Both the position numbers and the translations under genes were made by a program. DNA of 64,000 nucleotides from Cytophagales bacterium. GTDB lineage: Bacteria > Bacteroidota > Bacteroidia > Cytophagales > Microscillaceae. The stretch covers positions 28,769-92,768 of the forward strand of contig RDZE01000021.1 of the NCBI GenBank assembly GCA_004293905.1, given 5' to 3'. The notes beneath the pieces were generated by a model, which saw only the letters and a program-made list of their open reading frames with translations, was not told where the DNA came from and ran no database searches. Shown piece after piece: positions 24,755 through 36,907 of this stretch; the stretch's first letter is position 1; every line of letters begins with the position of its first letter.

Positions 24755-26197
24755 TTATTTCATTTTGATTTGTAGATTTCCTGTTGCCAATACGTTAAGA
24801 ATGATTTTATCGGGCGTGATGGCTACTTCGCCCATTTTGAGTTGGTCGAGTTTTCCATTGAGCAATGCTACTTCGCCGAGGGGGTAGTTGGTGAGGTTCT
24901 TTTGTATTTCTTTTTTGAGGTCTTCCAAAGAGGTTTTAAGTGGCATTTTTAATGATTCGGCAATCAATTTATTGATTTTTTTATCAAAAAGCCAAGCGGC
25001 AGATTTGGCAAGGAGGTTTTTGGTATCGAGGCTGAAGTCTAAATTTTTAATCATGATGCTCTGAGAGGCTTCATCATAGGTAGGCAACCCTTCAAAATAG
25101 GCTGTTCCGTTGAGGCTGCCCATCATGCTCACGGCTAAAACCATATTGCCTTCGCTTCCATAGAGGTTGATATTGGTGATGGTTATTTTCTTTTTGCCTT
25201 GTGTGTAGGTTTGCCCTACAAATTGTTTTTTTACCTCTTCTATGGCAAATTGCCTGTCTATATGGTTTTGCAATGTGATTTGAAACTGTGGGCTGATTTG
25301 GTTGGTTAGTTGTAGGTTTTTAAGTGGTAAATTGGAGGTATTATTGGGTGGGTTAGCTCCTATATAGCTATTAGCATACATACGCATTGCGACAGTTGTT
25401 TGTAGGGTATTGTTTTCGAAGCCAATGGGTTTCATCTGTATTTCTTCGGGCTTGAGTGTGAGCCAAGTATTGTATTCTTCGGAGAGTAAGATGGGTTTTT
25501 GAAGCATTGTCCATACCTGACTTACTTCTCCTTTTAGGTTGGCTTGGCTGCTGAGGGCTTCATCTATTTTTTTGGCAATGTATTCCTTTTGGTTTTTGAG
25601 TAATAAATCGGCAATAAAATCAATAGGGAGGCTAAAACCGCGTATATCAATGGTGGGTTTTACGAGCCATTGGTAGTTCTCAATAGTAGTTTGTGATTGT
25701 AATTGCCATTGTGGGCTGATGCCTATTTTGGTAGCAAAATTGATTTTGATGGCAAAATCTGAAGTGGCAGTTTCGCTGATGCTAAATCCTAAGGCTTCGG
25801 CTTCAAAAGTACCATCTAAGCGGACACGTAAAGGGACAGCAATTTTTAGACTGGAGGCATTGCCTGAGAGTTTAATATCTTCTTGTTTACTTACTTTCAG
25901 ATTGAACCTATCGTAGTCGCTACTTGATTGATTTTTTAACTCATAGAGCACTCCTTTTACTTGGCTATTGAGTTGTTTTTCAATTTGTAGTAGGGGAATT
26001 TGGAGGGGAAGTGCAATAGTCGACAACACTGATTTAGGGCTATAGTTTTGATAAGATTCAATGGGTGCTTTGGGGTATAGCGTTTTGGAACACGCGCTTA
26101 GAAAGAGCATTGAAGTACATAACACTAATAAATATACCACTGAGGTATATTTTAGCTTAGGATTGTTGTATGGTATGTAGTTTTTTATAGTAGCCAT
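24755..26197 (-). CDS. Hypothetical lipoprotein (possibly DUF4403-like)
   Basis: 480 aa. Lipobox LFLSAC after a Lys-containing n-region. ATG confirmed at 26197. It overlaps the upstream ABC gene by 41 nt. Confidence 0.5.
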   Translation of the reverse strand: MATIKNYIPYNNPKLKYTSVVYLLVLCTSMLFLSACSKTLYPKAPIESYQNYSPKSVLSTIALPLQIPLLQIEKQLNSQVKGVLYELKNQSSSDYDRFNLKVSKQEDIKLSGNASSLKIAVPLRVRLDGTFEAEALGFSISETATSDFAIKINFATKIGISPQWQLQSQTTIENYQWLVKPTIDIRGFSLPIDFIADLLLKNQKEYIAKKIDEALSSQANLKGEVSQVWTMLQKPILLSEEYNTWLTLKPEEIQMKPIGFENNTLQTTVAMRMYANSYIGANPPNNTSNLPLKNLQLTNQISPQFQITLQNHIDRQFAIEEVKKQFVGQTYTQGKKKITITNINLYGSEGNMVLAVSMMGSLNGTAYFEGLPTYDEASQSIMIKNLDFSLDTKNLLAKSAAWLFDKKINKLIAESLKMPLKTSLEDLKKEIQKNLTNYPLGEVALLNGKLDQLKMGEVAITPDKIILNVLATGNLQIKMK

Positions 26198-27977
26198 TTT
26201 CTTTTGCTATCAATTCTTGATGAGAACCTATTTCTACAATTTCACCTTGTTTTAATACGATGATTCTATCTGCTTTTTGTACGGTACTGAGGCGGTGCGC
26301 AATGACCAAAGAGGTGCGGTTTTGCATTAGTGATTCTAAGGCTACCTGCACTATTTTCTCCGATTCATTGTCTAAGGCTGAGGTGGCTTCGTCTAATATT
26401 AGGAGTGCTGGATTTTTCAGTACGGCTCTTGCAATGGTGAGTCGTTGTCGTTGCCCGCCTGCCAATTTCATTCCTCTGTCGCCAATGGAGGTTTGATATC
26501 CTTGTTCGCTTTGCATAATAAAGTCGTGTGCAAAGGCTATTTTTGCAGCTTCTTCTACGGTGCTTGGTGTGGCTTTAGGGTTGGCAAATGCTATGTTGTT
26601 ATAAATAGTATCATTGAATAAAATAGGTTCTTGGCTCACAATACCTATGAGTTCTAAAAGGCTTTCTTTGTTGATGTCTTTGATGTTGATACCGTCTATG
26701 AGTATTTCGCCTTCCTGAACATCATAAAAGCGAGGTATGAGGTCAGCAATGGTAGATTTTCCGCTCCCTGTTTCGCCTACAAGTGCTAAGGTTTCACCTT
26801 TTTGTATAGTAAAGGAAATATTTTTGAGCACCCATTGTGTATTGTATTTAAAAGATACATTTCTGAATTCTATACTTTTTTCAAATCCTTTTATTTCTTT
26901 TGCATTTAATTGGTTAGTAACTTCTTCGGGTGTATCTAAAATACTAAAAACTCTTTCGGCGGCTGAAAAACCACGTTGCAAAGTACTGTATGCACCTGCG
27001 ATGGTTTTGGCAGGTTGCATTACTTGTGAAAATAAGATGATGTAGGTTACAAATTGGCTTGCAGTCAGGTTCGTTTCTCCTGAAAGTACTAAACTACCTC
27101 CATACAAAAGAATACCCGAAACGACCAATACGCCTAAAAATTCAGAAACGGGGGAAGCCATTTCGCGGGTGTTGGCAGTTTTTCTGATGACGTTTCCGTA
27201 GTTGTGATTTTCGGTATAAAATTTAGAGGCAATGTATTGTTGTCCCTGAAAGGCTTTGATGATGCGAAGCGCGCCTATAGCCTCTTCTACTATAGTGATC
27301 ATATTGCCGAAGGTTTTTTGCCCTAAGTCGGTTTGGTGTCTTAATTTACTTACAAGCCATGCAACAATGCCACCAGCTAAGGGAATAAAAAAGATGCTGA
27401 ATAGGGTGAGTTCTGCCGAAATGAGGAAGAGTGCTAAGAAAAAGCCAACCAACTTGAAGGGTTCTTTGATGATGCGCATAGTGTTGGTTACAACCGCTTC
27501 TAATTCCAAAGAGTCAGCACTGATGCGTGCGATAAGGTCTCCCTTTCTTTGTTCGGAAAAATAACCAAGATGTAAATTGATAATTTTTTGGAATAGGTCT
27601 TGGCGTAGGTTTTCTATGATGGTGGCACGTAAATACTCTATAATTCTTATTGAGAGAAATAAAAAAACATTGGTAAGCAATACTGAAACAATGATAATGG
27701 AGCAGACAAATAATAGGGCGTGAGTTTTTCCGTGTTGTTGTGCTATGCTTAGGAAATAGTAATAGAAAATATCATTCAGATAACCAATTGTGAATGAAAA
27801 AGTGGGTATTTGGGGGGCTTGTGGCATTTCTTTGCTGAAAAGCACATCGAAGAGTGGCACTAAAAGGGTAAAATTGAACAACCCAAAGAGGGTATATAGG
27901 ATAGAGCAGAGAATAAAAGGGACAAAAACCACCCATAGTGGTTTGCCGTAGGCAAAAAGTTTGGATAGATATTTCAT
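26157..27977 (-). CDS. ABC transporter permease/ATP-binding protein (MsbA-like type I exporter)
   Basis: The track start at 28004 is TTG and overlaps a terminator tail. The ATG at 27977 gives MKYLSKLFAYGKPLW. Six TM helices, Walker A GETGSGKST, signature LAGGQRQRLTIARA, Walker B LILDEATSALD. Confidence 0.9.
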   Translation of the reverse strand: MKYLSKLFAYGKPLWVVFVPFILCSILYTLFGLFNFTLLVPLFDVLFSKEMPQAPQIPTFSFTIGYLNDIFYYYFLSIAQQHGKTHALLFVCSIIIVSVLLTNVFLFLSIRIIEYLRATIIENLRQDLFQKIINLHLGYFSEQRKGDLIARISADSLELEAVVTNTMRIIKEPFKLVGFFLALFLISAELTLFSIFFIPLAGGIVAWLVSKLRHQTDLGQKTFGNMITIVEEAIGALRIIKAFQGQQYIASKFYTENHNYGNVIRKTANTREMASPVSEFLGVLVVSGILLYGGSLVLSGETNLTASQFVTYIILFSQVMQPAKTIAGAYSTLQRGFSAAERVFSILDTPEEVTNQLNAKEIKGFEKSIEFRNVSFKYNTQWVLKNISFTIQKGETLALVGETGSGKSTIADLIPRFYDVQEGEILIDGINIKDINKESLLELIGIVSQEPILFNDTIYNNIAFANPKATPSTVEEAAKIAFAHDFIMQSEQGYQTSIGDRGMKLAGGQRQRLTIARAVLKNPALLILDEATSALDNESEKIVQVALESLMQNRTSLVIAHRLSTVQKADRIIVLKQGEIVEIGSHQELIAKENGYYKKLHTIQQS

Positions 27978-27993
27978 AATATTTTTGTAGGTG

Positions 27994-28001
27994 CAAAAAT
28001 A
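27994..28001 (-). promoter_or_regulatory. Candidate -7 promoter box (TATTTTTG on minus strand)
   Basis: Plus-strand caaaaata is TATTTTTG on the minus strand, 17 nt upstream of the ATG at 27977 and immediately after the terminator hairpin. Confidence 0.35.
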
Positions 28002-28002
28002 C

Positions 28003-28026
28003 AAAAAGCAGTCTGATTAGACTGCT
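28003..28026 (-). terminator. Intrinsic terminator after the lipoprotein gene
   Basis: 8-bp stem agcagtct (28007..28014) / agactgct (28019..28026) with loop gatt. The minus strand continues with TTTTT (plus-strand a-run 28003..28007). Confidence 0.7.
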
Positions 28027-28064: not shown

Positions 28065-28979
28065 TTAGTTGATGATTTTATCTCTTATTTTGATAGAGGT
28101 TTTTAGGATATTATCTAAATCTTTATCTGTAAGATTGATTTTGCTAGAAGTGTTGTCTTCTACGATTAGTATACCATTTTCTTCTTTTGTTACAGTAGGC
28201 TCTTCAGATTGGCTAAATTCTATTTTTACATTGTTATATATTTTTTGTAACTCTCCAAGTTCATTTCTTAGCTCTTTGATTTTAGCATTTTCTTCTTCAT
28301 AAAATGAAAGTAATAGCATTAATTGGTCTAAGATAATTTTTTGCTCTCCTATTCTATTGTTAAGCAATTCATTAGGTGTTTTTTTAGCTACTTCGCAAGT
28401 GATATAGAGCATTTCGAGCCATCCTCCTGTTACGATGAGGACTGTTAAATCGGCACGTTCTCTTTTTTGTAAATTTTCGTTGATTCTTTCAAGGTTAAGG
28501 TTCGTAACGATGAGTAAAGAGTCTAAATTATTGCTATTAGTGGCTAATTCTTTGATGGTGTTGAAGTCAAAAAATTCACCGATTTGTAAGCCATCTGCCA
28601 TTTTTTTGATAGAGTTCAAGAAGTAAAGCGCATCTTGAGTTTGGGAGTAGATATTGGAGTAGCCCAAATCAGCACTGTATACGCCCAAGTTAAGAGCCTT
28701 TTTGAAGTCAGTAGTATAGCTTGCGGTTTTATCTGTTGAGTTCAACAAGCCTTTATTATATTGAATTCCTAAATCTTTGATAAGGAAAGAAATTTCAAGG
28801 GGAGAAGGAATAGAGCGTACTATATCAGCGAGCACGTCTTTTGAAATGGGAGGGTTATCAGATTTGTTTTCTGTATTTTCTTTGTTGTCAGTTCCGCTTT
28901 TTTTAGAATTTTTTTTAGAGTCGCCTCCGCAAGCTCCTACTAAAAGGGCAACGATGAATAAAAATGCTAACTTTTTCAT
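28065..28979 (-). CDS. Hypothetical lipoprotein
   Basis: 304 aa. Signal plus lipobox MKKLAFLFIVALLVGACGG, a Lys/Asn-rich linker, then a largely helical body. It lies 15 nt downstream of the ABCG-like gene. Confidence 0.55.
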   Translation of the reverse strand: MKKLAFLFIVALLVGACGGDSKKNSKKSGTDNKENTENKSDNPPISKDVLADIVRSIPSPLEISFLIKDLGIQYNKGLLNSTDKTASYTTDFKKALNLGVYSADLGYSNIYSQTQDALYFLNSIKKMADGLQIGEFFDFNTIKELATNSNNLDSLLIVTNLNLERINENLQKRERADLTVLIVTGGWLEMLYITCEVAKKTPNELLNNRIGEQKIILDQLMLLLSFYEEENAKIKELRNELGELQKIYNNVKIEFSQSEEPTVTKEENGILIVEDNTSSKINLTDKDLDNILKTSIKIRDKIIN

Positions 28980-28994
28980 ATATACAAATTGTTT

Positions 28995-31900
28995 TTATTT
29001 GTTTATTTTTTTAGATTTAATTTTATTGAAAGAAATTTTACTTGTAATGTTAGATAAATTTTTTACCGCATCATAGTACAGTGTAATATATAATAGTATA
29101 GTAAAAAGCCATATTACGGTTAGGTTGTAGTAATAAGTATCAAACAAAAACCCTGCAAAATGCTTTTTGGGCGCAAGAAAATGAGTGCGATAATCATACC
29201 AACCTTCCGCATCGGAGGGTTCGTGGTAGATAGGGTCTATCATTTGTACTAATTTATCATTGCCTTCTATAAGACCATTGAGTAAAGATTCTTCTTTTTT
29301 TACAAGCCTCGCAAGTTCTAAGTTAAAGTATTGCGCTTTGAGGTCGTCATAGGTAGAGTCTGCTTCTTTGAATTCATCGTAGATTTTATCGCGTTCTTTG
29401 GCGGCATTGTTCATTTTTTTGGTAGCGTCTTTGTCTACTTTATCTAAGTAGGTTCTGATACGCTCCGCAATTTTTTCGTTGAATTTTTCTTCTGTAATAT
29501 CTTCTTCAGGGTTGATGCCTGTGAGGTATTTTTTGTAATCTTCTTTACGATTGAGTTCGTTTCGGAGTATTCTAAGGTCTTTTTCGTATTTTTTCTGTAC
29601 CGAATCTTCCCTTTTTTTCATTTGTTGATTTTTGACTAAATCATCTACCTTGTTTTTTAGGTTAGGCACCCAATATTTGGTAAGTACACGATTGATGCTT
29701 TCTTCTTTCTCAAGGTCGTAGTAGTCTATTTCGTAGTAGTTGTGTCTGAAATTATTGACGGCTATAGCTTCGTAAGCCCATCGCGATACCATAATGTCAG
29801 CCAAAAGGGGTACTTTGTCTTTATCAGCAATTACTTGGTTCATTTTATCATATTTGAAGATGATACCACTCATAATCATTTGAGGTATAAGCAACAAAGG
29901 AATCGTGATGTAAATAGTTACTACGGAATTGAAGGTAGAGGAGATATTCAGTCCTAACATATTAGCAAAACACGATACTGAGAAGAGTACTATCCAATAG
30001 TTCATCAATTCACCATCTATACTTAGTACGCTATTGCCTATGAGCACAAAAGTAAAAGTTTGGATGGCTGAAAGTGAAAATAAAATAAAAACTTTTGAAA
30101 CGAGGTAGGCGGCACGGCTTAAATTAAGGAAACGTTCTCTTTTTTGTATTTTTCTATCTCTGATGATTTCTTCCGCGCTGACTGTAAGCCCCATAAATAG
30201 TGAAATGATGATACAAATGAGCACATAAGCGGGGATATTGTCGTTGTACATAAAATTGTATTTTCCTTCTTCCTCGGGGTCGTTCTGAAAACGAATGACA
30301 TAGGAAAGTAAAAATGCCAACACAGGTGCTTCTAATAAATTGATAAGCATGTATTGTTGGTTACTTATCTTAGAAAGAAAATCGCGAATGGTAAAGATGA
30401 ATGTTTGTATTATCAACGAGGGTAGTTTGATAGAGGTTGGGGGTTTTTCGTTGATGGTTTCTACGGCTTCGAGCGATGGTTCTATATTTTGTTTGTATTT
30501 TTCATTCCAACCTTCGGGCGATATTTTTCTTTTGTTAGTGTATTGCCCGTATTCATTTACTACTTGTCTTTCTAAGAGGTTGAATACTTGTTCAGGGTTA
30601 AGGTTGCTCTTGTCGCCTTCTACTTGGTTGGTTTCTTTTTTGAAATAAGTGATGGCTTCGAGTGGGTTGCCATAGTATACAGGGTATCCGCCTTTGTCGA
30701 GGATTACCATTTTATCGAACATGCGGTATATCTCAACAGAGGGTTGGTGTATTACTACGAAAATGAGTTTTCCTTTGAGTGAAAGCTCTTTGAGTAAGTC
30801 CATTACATTTTCAGAATCGCGTGAGGAGAGTCCAGAGGTGGGCTCATCTACAAAAAGCACAGCGGGTTGTCTGATGAGTTCAAGGGCTATATTAAGGCGT
30901 TTTCTTTGCCCTCCGCTTATTTTTTTATTGAGTACATTCCCTACTTTTAGGTCTTTGATGTGGTCTAAGCCTAAATCTCCTAATACATCTATGACGCGTT
31001 CGTCTATGTCTTTTTCGCTCATATCGCCAAAGCATAATTTGGCATTGTAGTAGAGGTTTTGGTATACGGTTAATTCTTCTATGAGTAAGTCGTCTTGGGC
31101 TACATATCCGATAACGCCTTCTACTTTTTTGCGGTTTTCGTGGATATTGATGCCATTAATGAGTACTTCTCCTTTGGAGGGCTTCTCTATGCCTGAAAGT
31201 ACATTGAGTAGGGTTGTTTTACCTGCGCCACTACCTCCCATGATGCCTACTAATCTGCCTTGTGGCTCGGAGATGAATACGCCTCTTAGCCCTAATGCGC
31301 CATTGGGAAATTTGAATTCTATGTCGTTGGCTGTAAAAGAAACTCTGGTATCTAAGTGGCTTTCTAAGAAAATACTTGTTACATCGCTATAGTATACAGC
31401 CCTTGCTTGTTGTGTTTTTATGGAACTTCCGCTAGGGTATAAGTATGTAATTTGGTTTTTGAGAGGGAAGCCATTGAGCATTGGCAATTCTTCGCCAAGG
31501 TATTTAACGAAATAAATATCGGCAGATTTTACGTGTAGAAAAACGATATTTCCTTCAAGTTCTGGTACAATGAGATGTTTGAAGGCAGTTACTTCAAAAG
31601 GTTTTTCTTTGGAGGCAACTAATATGGTACTATGGTTAAAGTCGTATATTTGTGTGGAAAGTACGAATCCTTCTATGGCTTTGTACTCTTCTTTGTCGAA
31701 GTTAAATGCGCTTGATACGGTATCTATGATTTCACGTCTTTGTTTGCTGAAATTTCCGTCTGAGGCTACAAGTTCTAATAGTTTTACTACGATAAGTACT
31801 TTTTGCCCTTGCTCGAGTTCGCTATTGATTTGTTTGCAATAGTTTAGTATCTTCACCGATTCTTTCATTGTGATTTTATCGGGTCCGGGTTTTCCATATT

Positions 31901-32066
31901 CAGCTACTTGGTCATAGAGTTGGCTATAAGTGTTAATGGAATCTTCGTCTAATTGTTCTCTGAAATAATTCACTACAAAGTCTCTTTCGCGGGCAGTAGC
32001 ACCGCCTGCTTGTTTGGTGATAATTCCAAAGAGATTTGTTAATGCTTTTAATATATTTTCACTCAT
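28995..32066 (-). CDS. ABCG/ABC-2-type transporter fusion: TerB-like N-domain + unassigned beta-rich segment + NBD + 6-TM permease with a long coiled-coil insert
   Basis: 1023 aa. aa 1-135 are TerB-like (LLELVASDGNFSKQRREIIDTVSSAFNFDKEEY). The NBD has GGSGAGKTTLLNVLSG, ISGGQRKRLNIALEL, LFVDEPTSGLS and VIHQPS, which is the White/ABCG signature set. The ABC-2 permease covers aa ~550-775. aa ~780-970 are K/E-rich coiled coil, followed by a last TM helix (aa ~976-1000). Confidence 0.8.
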   Translation of the reverse strand: MSENILKALTNLFGIITKQAGGATARERDFVVNYFREQLDEDSINTYSQLYDQVAEYGKPGPDKITMKESVKILNYCKQINSELEQGQKVLIVVKLLELVASDGNFSKQRREIIDTVSSAFNFDKEEYKAIEGFVLSTQIYDFNHSTILVASKEKPFEVTAFKHLIVPELEGNIVFLHVKSADIYFVKYLGEELPMLNGFPLKNQITYLYPSGSSIKTQQARAVYYSDVTSIFLESHLDTRVSFTANDIEFKFPNGALGLRGVFISEPQGRLVGIMGGSGAGKTTLLNVLSGIEKPSKGEVLINGINIHENRKKVEGVIGYVAQDDLLIEELTVYQNLYYNAKLCFGDMSEKDIDERVIDVLGDLGLDHIKDLKVGNVLNKKISGGQRKRLNIALELIRQPAVLFVDEPTSGLSSRDSENVMDLLKELSLKGKLIFVVIHQPSVEIYRMFDKMVILDKGGYPVYYGNPLEAITYFKKETNQVEGDKSNLNPEQVFNLLERQVVNEYGQYTNKRKISPEGWNEKYKQNIEPSLEAVETINEKPPTSIKLPSLIIQTFIFTIRDFLSKISNQQYMLINLLEAPVLAFLLSYVIRFQNDPEEEGKYNFMYNDNIPAYVLICIIISLFMGLTVSAEEIIRDRKIQKRERFLNLSRAAYLVSKVFILFSLSAIQTFTFVLIGNSVLSIDGELMNYWIVLFSVSCFANMLGLNISSTFNSVVTIYITIPLLLIPQMIMSGIIFKYDKMNQVIADKDKVPLLADIMVSRWAYEAIAVNNFRHNYYEIDYYDLEKEESINRVLTKYWVPNLKNKVDDLVKNQQMKKREDSVQKKYEKDLRILRNELNRKEDYKKYLTGINPEEDITEEKFNEKIAERIRTYLDKVDKDATKKMNNAAKERDKIYDEFKEADSTYDDLKAQYFNLELARLVKKEESLLNGLIEGNDKLVQMIDPIYHEPSDAEGWYDYRTHFLAPKKHFAGFLFDTYYYNLTVIWLFTILLYITLYYDAVKNLSNITSKISFNKIKSKKINK

Positions 32067-32099: not shown

Positions 32100-32131
32100 A
32101 AAAAAAAGCTAAGATGTTGAGTTATCTTAGC
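32100..32131 (-). terminator. Strong intrinsic terminator after the SiaC-like gene
   Basis: 8-bp stem gctaagat (32108..32115) / atcttagc (32124..32131) with an 8-nt loop. It is followed on the minus strand by TTTTTTTT (plus-strand a-run 32100..32107). Confidence 0.8.
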
Positions 32132-32177: not shown

Positions 32178-32546
32178 TTAGTATGACTTGAATTCGAAGG
32201 GTACTTCTACCAATTCAGAGAATTCAGTTCCTGCTTCTTCCATATCTTCATCGTCTTCGTGGTAGTACCAAGTGATAGTAGTACCATTGATTTTTTCTAA
32301 TTTGGAGAGGATATCTAAGATAAGTTTAGAGGAAGCTGTGTTGAAGTATTCCAATTTGAAGATAAAGTTGGTTTCTTCGTTGGCTTGTTTGGAATATTCT
32401 TCCAACCATTCAAGAACGGGTTTGTAGAAATCGGCGGCATCTTCGGGTAGGGAGCGACCTGAGATTTCAAATATACCGTTGTTTTTGTCTAATATTATTT
32501 TGGGCGTATCTTCGGTGCCTTCTAAGTTAATTACATCTAACGACAT
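32178..32546 (-). CDS. SiaC-family regulatory phosphoprotein (DUF1987)
   Basis: 122-aa acidic protein. TPKIILDKNNGIFEISGRSLPEDAADFYKPVLEWL and EYFNTASSKLILDIL blocks are typical of DUF1987. Confidence 0.75.
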   Translation of the reverse strand: MSLDVINLEGTEDTPKIILDKNNGIFEISGRSLPEDAADFYKPVLEWLEEYSKQANEETNFIFKLEYFNTASSKLILDILSKLEKINGTTITWYYHEDDEDMEEAGTEFSELVEVPFEFKSY

Positions 32547-32609: not shown

Positions 32610-33176
32610 TTAGTCATCTTTTCCAGATTCTTTGGTACGAGGTACTATAGTTTTTAGTGAAAAAAATGAAATTCTGTTATTGATAGGTTCGAAATCGAAC
32701 TGCAGTTTTTGTCCTGATTTTCGTGCCATATCGATGAAGCCTAAGCCTGCTCCGCCTTTCGGGGAGATATCGCCTGTTTTGATAATATCTTTATAAAGGG
32801 CTTTTAGTCCGTCTTTATCAAGGTTATTGATGCGCTCTATTTTTTCGTGCAATATGGCGACTTTGTCGTTTGAGACGGGATTGCCTGAGGAGATGACATA
32901 CATATCTTCTTGTTTTCCGACCATAAAAATAGCGCTGTTTTTCCCTCTGTAGAGGTCGTCATCGACTTCATCGGAGTGTTTGACGATGTTTTGTAAGCAC
33001 TCTACCATTACATTGAAAACTTTACGTTTGATGCTTGCATCTTCACCTATAGCATCCATGTTTCTTTCAGCCATTGCTAATACGGATTTGGTAATTTCCT
33101 GCGTAAATTCGCCCTCATATACTAATATGAGAGAGCGGTCTAGCATGGTTTTGTGCAACTCATAGATGTACTTCAT
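32610..33176 (-). CDS. SiaB-family protein kinase (GHKL-fold, anti-sigma-kinase-like)
   Basis: 188 aa. N-box-like VMVECLQNIVKHS and G-box GGAGLGFIDMARKSG. The size and its position between a PP2C gene and a DUF1987 gene match the SiaB pattern. Confidence 0.7.
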   Translation of the reverse strand: MKYIYELHKTMLDRSLILVYEGEFTQEITKSVLAMAERNMDAIGEDASIKRKVFNVMVECLQNIVKHSDEVDDDLYRGKNSAIFMVGKQEDMYVISSGNPVSNDKVAILHEKIERINNLDKDGLKALYKDIIKTGDISPKGGAGLGFIDMARKSGQKLQFDFEPINNRISFFSLKTIVPRTKESGKDD

Positions 33177-33346: not shown

Positions 33347-36300
33347 TTAAAATTTTGCACCAATCACTAATATATCGTCCGTTTGTTTTGTTTCTCCTTT
33401 CCAACTTTCAAATGCGTCATCTAAGATGTTGTGCATTTGGTCAAATTTACCTTTTTTGATGCCATCTAAAATTACTTCTCTCATTTTTCTTGGGGAGAAT
33501 TTTTTATTATCTGCGCCTCCGAATTGGTCTCCGTATCCGTCAGAAGAAATATAAAAAGAGTCTCCTTTTTCTATTTGTATGATGTGGTTTGTAAACCCAT
33601 CTTTTTTCTTATAGTGTTCTCCACCTCCACCAACAGGCATTTTATCTCCTTTTACTTCCTCTATTTCTGTGCCATTATTTTTGAAGAAGAACATGGGGCG
33701 GTGCGCGCCTGCATATTCAAGTGTATTTTCTTGTAGGTTTATTTTACAAAGTGCAATATCCATTCCATCTTTTGTAACTGCCTCTGGAGAGTCTTGTTTT
33801 AGGGTTTTTGCCATCTCTACGTCAAGAAGATTGAGCACATCGCTGGGGTGTATTGCTTTACCAGAGTTGAGTACGTTGTTGATGGTAAAGAATCCAATGA
33901 TTGAGATAAGGGCACCTGGTACACCGTGTCCTGTACAGTCAACGGCGGCTAAGTAAATATCATCGTCTTTTTTGAAGAACCATGGGAAGTCTCCTGAAAC
34001 CACATCGCGGGGTTTGTATAAGATGAATGAATCAGGGAGGTAGTTTTTCAGAAAACTTGCACTAGGGAGTATGGCTTCTTGTATTCTTTTGGCGTAGTTG
34101 ATACTTTCTGTAATTCTACGGTTGGTTTGTTGTACTGCGAGTTCTATGAGTTTGCGCTCGGTGATGTCGTGTGATACTAAGAGTATAGATTCTATGGCTT
34201 GAGTTTCGCTGTATTCGGGTATGGCATTGACTTGCATGATGTGTTTTTCTTTGTCAGTGATGGGAAAATCCATCTCAAGACTTACTTTTTCTTTTTTCTC
34301 CACGATATCGTCAATGATTTCTTTCCATCGTTTGATAATTCGCCCATCTAAAATAATATCATCAATGCGTTTTCTGATGTATTCTTCTTTTCTGATGTTG
34401 GTCAGTCTTTCTATAGTAGGGTTGATGTAGAAAATTGTACCATCTGTACTGAGTCGGGTGATGAGGTCAGGTGAATTTTCAGAGAGAGCTTGCATTTGTC
34501 CTCTCATTCGGGCTTCTTTTTCGGCGAGTCTTCTTTCGGTGATATCGCGCGAGTTCACAACTATACCTTGTATGGCGGGGTCATTGAGTAGGTTAGTACC
34601 TGTGGCTTCGAGCCATACGCGACCTGCGATTTTGGATTTATAGTTGATTTGTATGGTTACTTTCTTGTATGGTTCGGCTATCAGTGTTGCGAACATGGTT
34701 TTGAAGGCTTGCTGACCTTCAGCATTCATATACTTGAGGTCTTGTATGCCTATCATGTCTTCTACGGTATAACCCAATATTTTTTCTACGGAGGGGCTTA
34801 TTTCTCTGATTTCTCCTGTTTCTTTGTATATGGTGATGATTTCAGAAGAGTTTTCAAGTAAGATGGCTGTTTTAGCGTTCGCAATTTGCACTTTTTCTAC
34901 TTCTGCTTCTAGTCGTATGTTAGTGAGTTTGAGTGTTTCTTGCGTTGATTCCATTTCTTCGGCGTTCTGCGTCAATATTTGTTGTTGGTATTGTAGGCTT
35001 CGGCTCATTTCTTGGGATTCGTCAAGCAGTTTTTGGGTACGTTCTTGTACTTTTATGTTGAATACTGTGCGTGCAATGATTTCGCTTACTTCTTCTACGA
35101 ATCGTACATCGCGAGAAGAGAATTTTTCGAATCCTGCAAATTCTAATACTCCTAATACTTTTTCTTCTCTATCTACCAGTGTGATGAGTGGTGTGATGAG
35201 TAGGGCTGTGGGTTTTCGGTCGCCTAATAAACCAGAGGTGATGGTTATGTATTCGTCTGGTATTTCGGTTCTTAGGATTGTGTCTTGCTCTGCTACGGCT
35301 TGTCCTATTAGTCCTTCTGCAAATCGGAATTGTGCTTTTATGTATTTTCTTTTATTATAGGCATAGCTTGCGTTCATTTCTATGAGTACGTCTTGTGCGT
35401 CTTGCTCTATAGAGTTAAGCGTGTAAAAAGCACCTTGTACGGCATTGATTTTTCGGCAAATGTACTCTACTACAGCTTCCCCGAGGCTTTCTATGTTGTT
35501 TCGTTCGCGCAAGATATCACCTATTTCTGCACGTCCTACTACTATCCAGTTTCGTTCTTCGTCTTTCTTTGCGGCTTGTTGAATGCTATTGCGCATAGTA
35601 AGTAAGGCTATAGCAAGTGCATCGTTTTCGCTGGAGGGGTGGAATTGTGCATTGAAATCACCTTCTCCTATTTTGTGTGCAAATTCGGCTGTGTTTTTTA
35701 GATTTGTTACTAATTCGTTAAGTAGTTGGCTCATTTCTCCAAATTCGTCTGCTGTACTTTGTTCAAGTTCTTTGGGCAGTACTCCTTGTGAGAGTAGTTC
35801 GATGGTATCTTTGAGTGATTGTAGGGGTTCGATGAGTATTCTGGAGAAAATAACGCCTATGATGACAGAGATAATGATTACTACTGCTCCTGCGATGAAG
35901 AACACATTGCGGAGGCGATAGGAAGGTGCGTATATTTCGTTGTTATCTACTTTTACAATGACCCCCCAATTTACTTCGGGTATAAAACGCCAAGTAGCCA
36001 ATACTTGCTCGCCTCTGTAGTCAGTGCCTGTGGTGTAGGTTTCGTATCCATATCCTCTTACGGCTTTGTCTAAAAACTCACTTTCGCCTACAACTGCATA
36101 TTTTTTGAGAGCAGCGTCTTTATCTTCCTTGAGTGGGTTGAGGTAGGTGATTTTATTTCCGTATCTTTTGATGAGCAATATTTCGCCTGTTTTTCCTAAT
36201 CCGAGCGTATCACTGGCTATTTCGTAGATATAATCCATCGTTACTTCATAGACAATGAGCCCTAATATTTGTCTGGTTTTGTCAATGACGGGTGCATAAA

Positions 36301-36907
36301 TGGAAAAATATTTTTCTTTTTTATTTTGAGAGTTGTATACCCCTGTAAAAATAATAGAATCGCCTGCTGAAGTAATGGGGTCGCCTTCTTCATTGAGGTA
36401 GTAATCTTTGATTTTACGGGCACTAAGGTCTGTATTTTTATCTGTTTTGAATATTATTTTTCCTTCTTTATCGGTGAGGTATATATTCTTGATTTGGTAG
36501 AAGTTGCTTTGTAATGCTTTGAGTAGGTCGTATACTTCGTTATCGTTTTTGTAGATGATGTTGTTGGTTTCTATGTTGTTTTGTGTAGTGTCGTTTTGTT
36601 TTTGTAAGGAATCTTTTTTGAGTGTTATATTATTATTATCATTGTTAATGAGTAATTCTTTTTGTAGTTTTTCACGAACGGCTTTTAGATTGGAAGAGAA
36701 TCGTAGGTTTTCTTTGAGTTTATCAAGGAAGATGTCTATTTTCTGTGATTTTAATTTGGCAATCACATTGACTGACTCAAGATAACGCTCTTCTATGGAG
36801 CTTTCGCTGAGTTGATAAGCAATAAAACTCACAGATACTGTTGATATGAGTACTATGAATATAACCAGTAAGGTAATTTTTGTGCTTATTTTTATTTTTT
36901 GGAGCAT
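33347..36907 (-). CDS. Membrane sensor Ser/Thr phosphatase: TM - Cache-like ectodomain - TM - HAMP - GAF - coiled coil - PAS - PAS - PP2C/SpoIIE (SiaA-like)
   Basis: 1186 aa. TM helices at aa ~11-32 and ~335-356. HAMP aa ~357-410. GAF aa ~455-612 (AVQGAFY, FAEGLIGQAV, VLGVLEFAGF). PAS ends NSRDITERR and VSHDITERK. PP2C blocks SGDFPWFF, AAVDCTGHGVPGAL, DGMDIALC and SSDGYGDQFGG. Confidence 0.85.
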   Translation of the reverse strand: MLQKIKISTKITLLVIFIVLISTVSVSFIAYQLSESSIEERYLESVNVIAKLKSQKIDIFLDKLKENLRFSSNLKAVREKLQKELLINNDNNNITLKKDSLQKQNDTTQNNIETNNIIYKNDNEVYDLLKALQSNFYQIKNIYLTDKEGKIIFKTDKNTDLSARKIKDYYLNEEGDPITSAGDSIIFTGVYNSQNKKEKYFSIYAPVIDKTRQILGLIVYEVTMDYIYEIASDTLGLGKTGEILLIKRYGNKITYLNPLKEDKDAALKKYAVVGESEFLDKAVRGYGYETYTTGTDYRGEQVLATWRFIPEVNWGVIVKVDNNEIYAPSYRLRNVFFIAGAVVIIISVIIGVIFSRILIEPLQSLKDTIELLSQGVLPKELEQSTADEFGEMSQLLNELVTNLKNTAEFAHKIGEGDFNAQFHPSSENDALAIALLTMRNSIQQAAKKDEERNWIVVGRAEIGDILRERNNIESLGEAVVEYICRKINAVQGAFYTLNSIEQDAQDVLIEMNASYAYNKRKYIKAQFRFAEGLIGQAVAEQDTILRTEIPDEYITITSGLLGDRKPTALLITPLITLVDREEKVLGVLEFAGFEKFSSRDVRFVEEVSEIIARTVFNIKVQERTQKLLDESQEMSRSLQYQQQILTQNAEEMESTQETLKLTNIRLEAEVEKVQIANAKTAILLENSSEIITIYKETGEIREISPSVEKILGYTVEDMIGIQDLKYMNAEGQQAFKTMFATLIAEPYKKVTIQINYKSKIAGRVWLEATGTNLLNDPAIQGIVVNSRDITERRLAEKEARMRGQMQALSENSPDLITRLSTDGTIFYINPTIERLTNIRKEEYIRKRIDDIILDGRIIKRWKEIIDDIVEKKEKVSLEMDFPITDKEKHIMQVNAIPEYSETQAIESILLVSHDITERKLIELAVQQTNRRITESINYAKRIQEAILPSASFLKNYLPDSFILYKPRDVVSGDFPWFFKKDDDIYLAAVDCTGHGVPGALISIIGFFTINNVLNSGKAIHPSDVLNLLDVEMAKTLKQDSPEAVTKDGMDIALCKINLQENTLEYAGAHRPMFFFKNNGTEIEEVKGDKMPVGGGGEHYKKKDGFTNHIIQIEKGDSFYISSDGYGDQFGGADNKKFSPRKMREVILDGIKKGKFDQMHNILDDAFESWKGETKQTDDILVIGAKF

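Follow-up and report, generated by a model that had tools for sequence, protein, structure and literature searches.

A conserved ABCG-type exporter with a TerB and FHA-fold N-terminal module, the probable output of a SiaABC-type partner switch in Cytophagales

The window that we analysed (64,000 nucleotides [nt] of a Cytophagales bacterium, GenBank assembly GCA_004293905.1, contig RDZE01000021.1, positions 28,769 to 92,768 of the forward strand) raises the question of what controls an ATP-binding cassette (ABC) exporter that carries two additional domains at its N-terminus and lies beside a set of Ser/Thr phospho-signalling genes. The exporter gene (28995..32066, minus strand) encodes a 1023-amino-acid (aa) ABCG-type half-transporter; its open reading frame (ORF) was confirmed, and the start codon is supported because M1 and S2 are invariant among the homologues. 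The answer developed below is that the protein represents a genuine and conserved variety of the FHA-linked ABCG-type exporters, one that has not been described before and is probably wired to a SiaABC partner switch. A literature search found no description of a TerB/pseudo-FHA ABCG exporter family, and the matches for SiaC in PMC11885536 proved to concern an unrelated sialidase.

The link to the switch is carried by conserved gene order and by co-occurrence. The homologues fall into two paralogue groups, A (53-66% identical to the query transporter) and B (40-48%), and we compared 20-kb regions around 20 genes of each. In group A, which was sampled across about 10 GTDB families of the order, siaA-siaB-siaC lies directly upstream on the same strand in 19 of 20 loci, a gene for a 304-aa lipoprotein lies directly downstream in 18, and cheR-cheB-GAF stands further upstream in about 15. 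Clustering of the ORFs of 21 loci confirmed this: siaA is kept in 19, siaB and the downstream lipoprotein in 20 each, so that each of the four neighbours is present in 19-20 of the 21, and the order siaA-siaB-siaC-ABCG-lipoprotein is retained in 19-20 of these loci. Beyond this cluster nothing is conserved save a secreted protein of ~143 aa at the distal end (14/21 loci), which is missing from the window, and the ORF clustering returned no conserved candidate output gene other than ABCG and no conserved gene for an outer-membrane barrel or a membrane fusion protein (MFP)-like protein. Furthermore, a SiaC orthologue (at least 63% identity) adjoins the group-A ABCG gene wherever the assembly allows a check, and five genomes are without both; the exception is a fragmented assembly (G002) with the SiaC orthologue, in which no group-A ABCG gene was detected. 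The bacterium's own genome (3.3 Mb) holds 16 SiaC-family (PF09345) genes (e.g., C14:25365-25724, C22:68428-68784, and C1:163648-164007), which points to a large expansion of SiaABC-like partner switches. Taken together, the conserved order and the co-occurrence with SiaC indicate that the ABCG transporter is probably the output of the SiaABC-type switch. An earlier note on this DNA had proposed a link to the adjacent Ser/Thr switch and had looked to neighbourhood conservation of the siaABC-like genes and the lipoprotein to check it; the counts given above support that link strongly.

The locus itself is consistent with such a role. The ABCG gene stands in the output position of the switch, and the acceptor threonine of SiaC is kept, Thr70 (YFNTASSK) aligning with the phosphorylated T68 peptide LLYLNTSSIK of Pseudomonas aeruginosa SiaC (PMC7647112). 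In P. aeruginosa, unphosphorylated SiaC binds the helical stalks of SiaD, and phosphorylation blocks the binding (PMC8457831). No GGDEF domain was found in the Pfam scan of the neighbours tested or among the conserved neighbours of orthologous loci.

The core of the protein is that of a homodimer-type ABCG (White/ABC-2) half-transporter. The nucleotide-binding domain (NBD) precedes the transmembrane domain (TMD) in one polypeptide, in the ABCG order of NBD followed by six transmembrane (TM) helices. The four motifs on which the earlier note had based its White/ABCG assignment (GGSGAGKTTLLNVLSG, ISGGQRKRLNIALEL, LFVDEPTSGLS, and VIHQPS) were all found, and Walker A, the Q-loop, the signature, the D-E of Walker B and the H-loop are intact; all are invariant in an alignment of 35 homologues, and because of this invariance the ATPase should be active. 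Pfam placed ABC_tran at aa 268-411 (E = 8e-32), ABC2_membrane_7 at aa 440-531 and ABC2_membrane at aa 554-769, and its TerB match at aa 12-131 (E = 5e-7; 30.4 bits, above the gathering threshold of 24.4) agrees with the TerB-like segment previously noted at aa 1-135; the same scan left aa 135-250 and aa 780-970 unassigned. Of the NCBIfam models, TIGR00955 (White/ABCG, pigment precursor permease subfamily) scored best, with 253 bits over NBD and TMD, so far under its cut-off of 736 that the transporter is to be regarded as ABCG-like and outside that eukaryote-centred subfamily. By sequence, the nearest proteins of solved structure are CDR1/Pdr5 and ABCG2/G1/G5/G8/G25.

We modelled the N-terminal 262 residues with AlphaFold2 from an alignment of 26 sequences (at least 32% identity; predicted local distance difference test score [pLDDT] 88, predicted template modelling score [pTM] 0.81). 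The TerB part is predicted to form seven helices at aa 3-136, and the strands of the adjoining beta module lie at aa 148-225, both at a pLDDT of about 90. In Foldseek searches the helical part matched the TerB-like protein PG1108 (2h5n; TMt 0.59-0.63), and the top matches of the model in the PDB were almost all FHA domains, the best being MEK1 FHA (5yyz; E = 1.6e-3, probability 1.0, TMt 0.59, root-mean-square deviation 3.1 Å, 89 columns), with CEP170, Rad53 FHA1, kanadaptin, and Bdellovibrio DgcB FHA as further matches. By its predicted structure, the beta module at aa 145-240 has an FHA fold. The sequence speaks differently of its function. Pfam FHA (PF00498) gave no match to the module at E ≤ 1, and in genomes that encode the transporter it matched canonical FHA proteins of other genes and never the beta module that adjoins TerB; hhalign of the module against 14 canonical FHA domains from relatives returned a probability of 0.1%. 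In the family alignment, with positions assigned by motif spacing and not by structural superposition, the canonical phospho-threonine-binding residues (Arg of GR, Ser of SxxH, S/T and Asn of S/T-x-NG) are not conserved: the GR position has become (V/A)(S/D/N), the SxxH position has lost its Ser and retains K-H/Y alone, the S/T-x-NG loop has become an acidic G-(E/Q/H)-(E/D)-x, and the invariant N198-G199 corresponds to the second, structural "vNG" turn. N198 and G213 are the sole residues of the module that are invariant across groups A and B. Since the binding residues are not conserved and both Pfam and hhalign are blind to the module, a canonical reader of phospho-SiaC is unlikely; we therefore term aa 145-240 a pseudo-FHA domain, for which canonical phospho-threonine binding is unlikely. 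The degenerate FHA-like reader suggested earlier survives as a fold but is unlikely to be a canonical phospho-threonine reader.

A profile of the TerB and pseudo-FHA domains matched 953 representative clusters (E ≤ 1e-3) among 1.84 billion proteins. The best 150 matches are mostly proteins of ~1000 aa, and of 10 matches of odd length that were scanned, nine look like truncated ABC proteins and one has GTPase domains. Within the best 150 and the off-length matches checked, the tandem is confined by sequence to the N-terminus of the transporter family, and there is no alternative fusion apart from P0171, a metagenomic protein of 504 aa in which the module and the start of the NBD are joined to HflX-type GTPase domains, possibly as a chimera of assembly or gene calling. 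Orthologues of 1120-1148 aa (L053, L054, and L056), which matched only from aa ~179, were suspected of a different N-terminal domain and were found merely to carry insertions: 60-90 aa are added to the loop between TerB helices 3 and 4, and about 30 aa, rich in Lys and Asn, to a hairpin of the pseudo-FHA domain.

Full-length homologues (more than 120; 1013-1079 aa, 53-65% identity) come from Cytophagales and all bear generic names only; most of them also carry PF05099. Of 301 genomes sampled evenly across the phylum, nine were positive, five from the same order and four from two other families of the class, and 28 of 31 genomes within the order were positive, usually with two paralogues. As judged from these searches, the family does not extend beyond Cytophagales and a small number of other Bacteroidia. 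The bacterium's own genome carries both a group-A and a group-B paralogue. A full-length paralogue there (46% identity; G000:C14:38250-41303, L058:8442-11504) has no Sia genes nearby, and downstream of it lie a RidA-like gene of 131 aa and a gene for a membrane protein of 304 aa. Group B has a distant homologue of the lipoprotein upstream in 7-8 loci.

Hydropathy gave five TM helices within aa 572-738 and one at aa 982-1001, as had been claimed before. With the NBD in the cytoplasm, the K/R-rich TM2-TM3 loop (7 K/R) and C-terminal tail (6 K) put aa 776-976 in the periplasm, and the AlphaFold2 topology agrees; by predicted topology, the ~200-aa insert that separates the re-entrant SRWAYEA helix from TM6 is periplasmic, where the earlier note had placed it. 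In the AlphaFold2 model of aa 745-1008 (alignment of 30 sequences; pLDDT 88, pTM 0.83), the re-entrant helix spans aa 760-775 and TM6 aa 977-1007, and the insert contains helices at aa 783-814 (32 residues), 821-840 (20), and 864-902 (39), two short helices within aa 906-923, and beta-hairpins at aa 932-941 and 967-976. Its alignment shows few indels, a conserved length and the motifs YYxLEK, NESLADLVRN, QQIDPVF, and DYRTHFFAPxK. Residues 780-970 are rich in charged amino acids (K 15%, E 11.5%, D 10.5%). The insert is, according to the model, a compact, folded helical domain and not the charged coiled coil of ~190 aa described earlier. Foldseek found no significant relative of it in the PDB (best, an OspC helical bundle at E = 1.0), and a word-based search with the insert alone, which found one other protein, was uninformative because the insert diverges fast. 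In an Rv1747-like ABC protein encoded by relatives, this position is taken by a loop of only ~70 aa, so that the ~200-aa insert represents an expansion.

The coordinates of the domains and of the neighbouring features are given in Table 1.

Table 1. Domains of the ABCG-type transporter and features of the surrounding locus; all lie on the minus strand, in window coordinates
Feature	Residues (aa)	Window position	Description and evidence
TerB domain	1-136	31659..32066 (-)	Seven helices, two DG-x5-(E/Q)R-type motifs; Pfam, AlphaFold2, Foldseek
Pseudo-FHA domain	145-240	31347..31634 (-)	Predicted beta sandwich directly before NBD; AlphaFold2, Foldseek
ABC nucleotide-binding domain	245-480	30627..31334 (-)	Pfam ABC_tran, invariant motifs
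NBD-TMD linker/connecting helix region	481-555	30402..30626 (-)	Pfam ABC2_membrane_7
TM1-TM5 and re-entrant helix SRWAYEAIAV	556-775	29742..30401 (-)	Pfam ABC2_membrane, hydropathy, AlphaFold2
Periplasmic helical domain in TM5-TM6 loop	776-976	29139..29741 (-)	Predicted by AlphaFold2
TM6 and Lys-rich cytoplasmic tail, with stop codon	977-1023	28995..29138 (-)	AlphaFold2 helix, six tail Lys
Partner lipoprotein	304 aa in all	28065..28979 (-)	Lipobox LVGAC, helical; starts 15 nt after ABCG stop
Terminator-like hairpin		32108..32131 (-)	Followed by T8; in 111-nt siaC-ABCG spacer
SiaC-family phosphoprotein	122 aa in all	32178..32546 (-)	Pfam SiaC (PF09345), E 1.4e-40; Thr70 in YFNTASSK
SiaB-like kinase (DUF6272)		32610..33176 (-)	Pfam PF19788, E 4.6e-45
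SiaA-like sensor phosphatase		33347..36907 (-)	dCache-HAMP-GAF-PAS-PP2C/SpoIIE (Pfam)

Profile searches with the lipoprotein family found no relative in Pfam or the PDB, and nearly all of its 2197 homologues either lack a name or are annotated as "hypothetical protein". In many relatives (e.g., L040:11634-14737, L043:11662-15301, and L039:5322-8453), the ABCG gene is followed by two or three tandem lipoprotein paralogues, the later copies with ordinary signal peptides, and then by a secreted, Cys-containing protein of ~143 aa. The window has one lipoprotein only and no 143-aa gene, a 37%-identical copy of which lies at G000:C43:25072-25440. Just downstream of the lipoprotein, at 24755-28004, are an MsbA-like ABC exporter (615 aa) and a DUF4403 protein (480 aa), an adjacency that is not conserved in relatives.

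On this evidence we lean, with modest confidence, towards a transporter that acts as effector of the directly upstream SiaABC-type partner switch and works with a dedicated periplasmic/lipoprotein partner. The sensor phosphatase SiaA and the kinase SiaB would set the phosphorylation state of SiaC Thr70, and one form of SiaC would dock on the TerB/pseudo-FHA module and gate the ATPase or transport. The docking form would most likely be unphosphorylated SiaC, by analogy with the SiaC-SiaD pair of P. aeruginosa, and this form is also favoured because the FHA-like domain has lost the phosphate-binding residues. On the other side of the membrane, the periplasmic helical domain would pass on hydrophobic cargo that had been lifted out of the inner membrane, with the helical lipoprotein or its periplasmic paralogues as recipients, a handover that would resemble the loading of extracellular acceptors by eukaryotic ABCG/ABCA exporters. 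The complete chain, in which a CheR/CheB-fed SiaABC switch directly gates the exporter through SiaC on a TerB and pseudo-FHA receiver, and the periplasmic domain loads lipoprotein acceptors, is put forward as a tentative and rather doubtful extension; if true, it would provide a bacterial equivalent of the way in which ABCG/ABCA proteins export lipids to acceptors outside the cell, together with a new class of SiaC output.

Several points weigh against a SiaC-gated exporter. Paralogue B keeps the TerB/pseudo-FHA module and has no Sia genes nearby, so that the module may sense something else. The hairpin with its T8 run between siaC and the ABCG gene (32131..32108) is real, and it parts the two genes both here and in about four other genomes, so that they may be separate transcripts; the terminator reported earlier is thus present, but a comparably stable hairpin with a T-run occurs in only about 5 of 17 orthologous siaC-ABCG spacers (56-250 nt, save three of 448-924 nt). 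Both AlphaFold2 models rest on shallow alignments (26-30 sequences, at least 32% identity), the contact between SiaC and the transporter is one that we infer, and the substrate and acceptor roles are drawn from family analogy only.

Some of these points fit a transporter that is regulated apart from the Sia switch, its TerB/pseudo-FHA module sensing a small ligand, a metal or an envelope signal and its adjacency to the switch reflecting a shared pathway or co-expression; for example, the switch might control the CheR/CheB/GAF part, or the dCache sensor of SiaA might receive feedback from the exported product. The role commonly ascribed to TerB domains is the binding of ligands or metals, the dCache domain of SiaA is extracytoplasmic, a terminator-like element stands in some genomes, and the N-terminal module is present in both paralogue groups while Sia neighbours are found in group A only. 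We nevertheless regard independent regulation as unlikely, since ABCG is the only candidate output gene that the cluster conserves, adjacency and co-occurrence hold almost without exception although the bacterium's own genome has 16 SiaC paralogues, and the divergence between groups A and B is greatest in TerB (54% vs. 34% identity), which fits partner specificity. Less probable again is a pump turned on by the kinase state, in which the FHA-like module is a working phospho-threonine reader of phospho-SiaC. Its model would be Mycobacterium tuberculosis Rv1747, reportedly an FHA-FHA-ABC exporter under the control of the Ser/Thr kinase PknF; the Foldseek evidence for an FHA fold, the acceptor Thr retained by SiaC, and the ABC core shared with Rv1747-like proteins all speak for it. 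It is difficult to reconcile with a module that, by motif spacing, has not preserved the GR arginine, the SxxH serine or the S/T-x-N of the beta6-beta7 loop, is acidic at the loop position, and has N198 and G213 as its only residues invariant across both groups. Nor is the module matched by Pfam FHA, which does match canonical FHA proteins in the same genomes, or recognised by hhalign, as described above. Neither canonical FHA domains nor a Hanks-type kinase partner, the two marks of the Rv1747 type, were found here, the kinase being SiaB-like.

The insert raises an alternative of another kind, namely that in the dimer it forms a long stalk or channel to the outer membrane, as in a tripartite pump, with the lipoprotein as outer-membrane anchor; the earlier note had thought of a tether or tunnel in this direction. 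The periplasmic position of the insert and the conserved lipoprotein partner speak for such an arrangement. The longest predicted helix, however, has 39 residues, about 58 Å when estimated at 1.5 Å per residue, so that the insert is unlikely to bridge the periplasm alone; with at least five helices and two hairpins, its best (nonsignificant) fold match is a compact helical bundle, and the cluster conserves neither a gene for an outer-membrane barrel nor an MFP-like one. We consider a stalk very improbable, and return to the exporter as effector of the SiaABC-type switch.

To our knowledge, the sole output of a SiaC switch is the diguanylate cyclase SiaD of Pseudomonas. The ABC exporter is a conserved candidate for a second class of SiaC output, which makes such a class directly testable. 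The analysis also defines a large transporter family, the 953 representative clusters of which have had generic names only, and describes a periplasmic domain that has no solved structural relative and an unannotated partner protein family of about 2200 members. The pseudo-FHA domain may illustrate how phospho-readers are repurposed, and the system could bear on the export of envelope lipids or pigments in gliding Cytophagales.

Among known transporters, the protein shares with eukaryotic ABCG proteins (ABCG2, ABCG1, ABCG5/G8, and White) and the fungal pleiotropic drug resistance (PDR) pumps the NBD-TMD order, the six TM helices, the re-entrant helix before an extracytoplasmic TM5-TM6 loop and an H-loop of the VIHQPS type. 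It differs from them in its N-terminal TerB and pseudo-FHA domains, in a TIGR00955 score below cut-off, and in having as its loop a helical domain of ~200 aa and no Cys-rich EL3. A type VII ABC protein of the MacB/LolCDE/FtsEX kind was ruled out, since there are six TM helices with the periplasmic domain between TM5 and TM6, and not four with the domain between TM1 and TM2. Like the TerB family (PF05099; PG1108, 2h5n), the first domain is a helical bundle in which a DG-x5-(E/Q)R-like motif occurs twice; it differs in its fusion to an ABC transporter and in the absence of a ter operon nearby. The gene cluster resembles SiaABCD of P. aeruginosa in its PP2C phosphatase, SiaB-type kinase and SiaC (PF09345) with acceptor Thr, in the same gene order and followed by an effector gene (PMC7647112, PMC8457831). 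It departs from that pathway in that the fourth gene codes for an ABCG exporter where P. aeruginosa has the diguanylate cyclase SiaD, a coiled-coil stalk like that of SiaD is lacking, genes for CheR, CheB, and a GAF protein stand upstream, and SiaA has the architecture dCache-HAMP-GAF-PAS.

The likeness to Rv1747 is of particular interest for the origin of the N-terminal module. In both, an ABC-2/ABCG-like half-transporter begins its core with the NBD, has an FHA-fold domain immediately before it, and is encoded beside a Ser/Thr phospho-signalling system; the Rv1747-like proteins of relatives are 31% identical to the transporter over NBD and TMD, the SRWxxEA motif included. Such an exporter, of 809 aa and with two canonical FHA domains, was observed in relatives (L104:1157-3586 in G005; G001:C206 and G008:C40); the bacterium's own genome is apparently without one, its sole Pfam FHA match lying in a 191-aa ORF (C15:63898-64089). 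The differences are that one degenerate FHA-fold domain and a TerB domain stand here in place of two canonical FHA domains, a SiaB (GHKL-type)/SiaA (PP2C)/SiaC partner switch in place of a Hanks kinase, and a ~200-aa periplasmic domain with a dedicated lipoprotein partner in place of a ~70-aa loop. In the Rv1747-like protein compared, the FHA likewise sits directly in front of the NBD. The positional homology between the pseudo-FHA domain and the canonical FHA domains of the Rv1747-like proteins suggests, from sequence comparison, that the transporter descends from an FHA-regulated ABC exporter.

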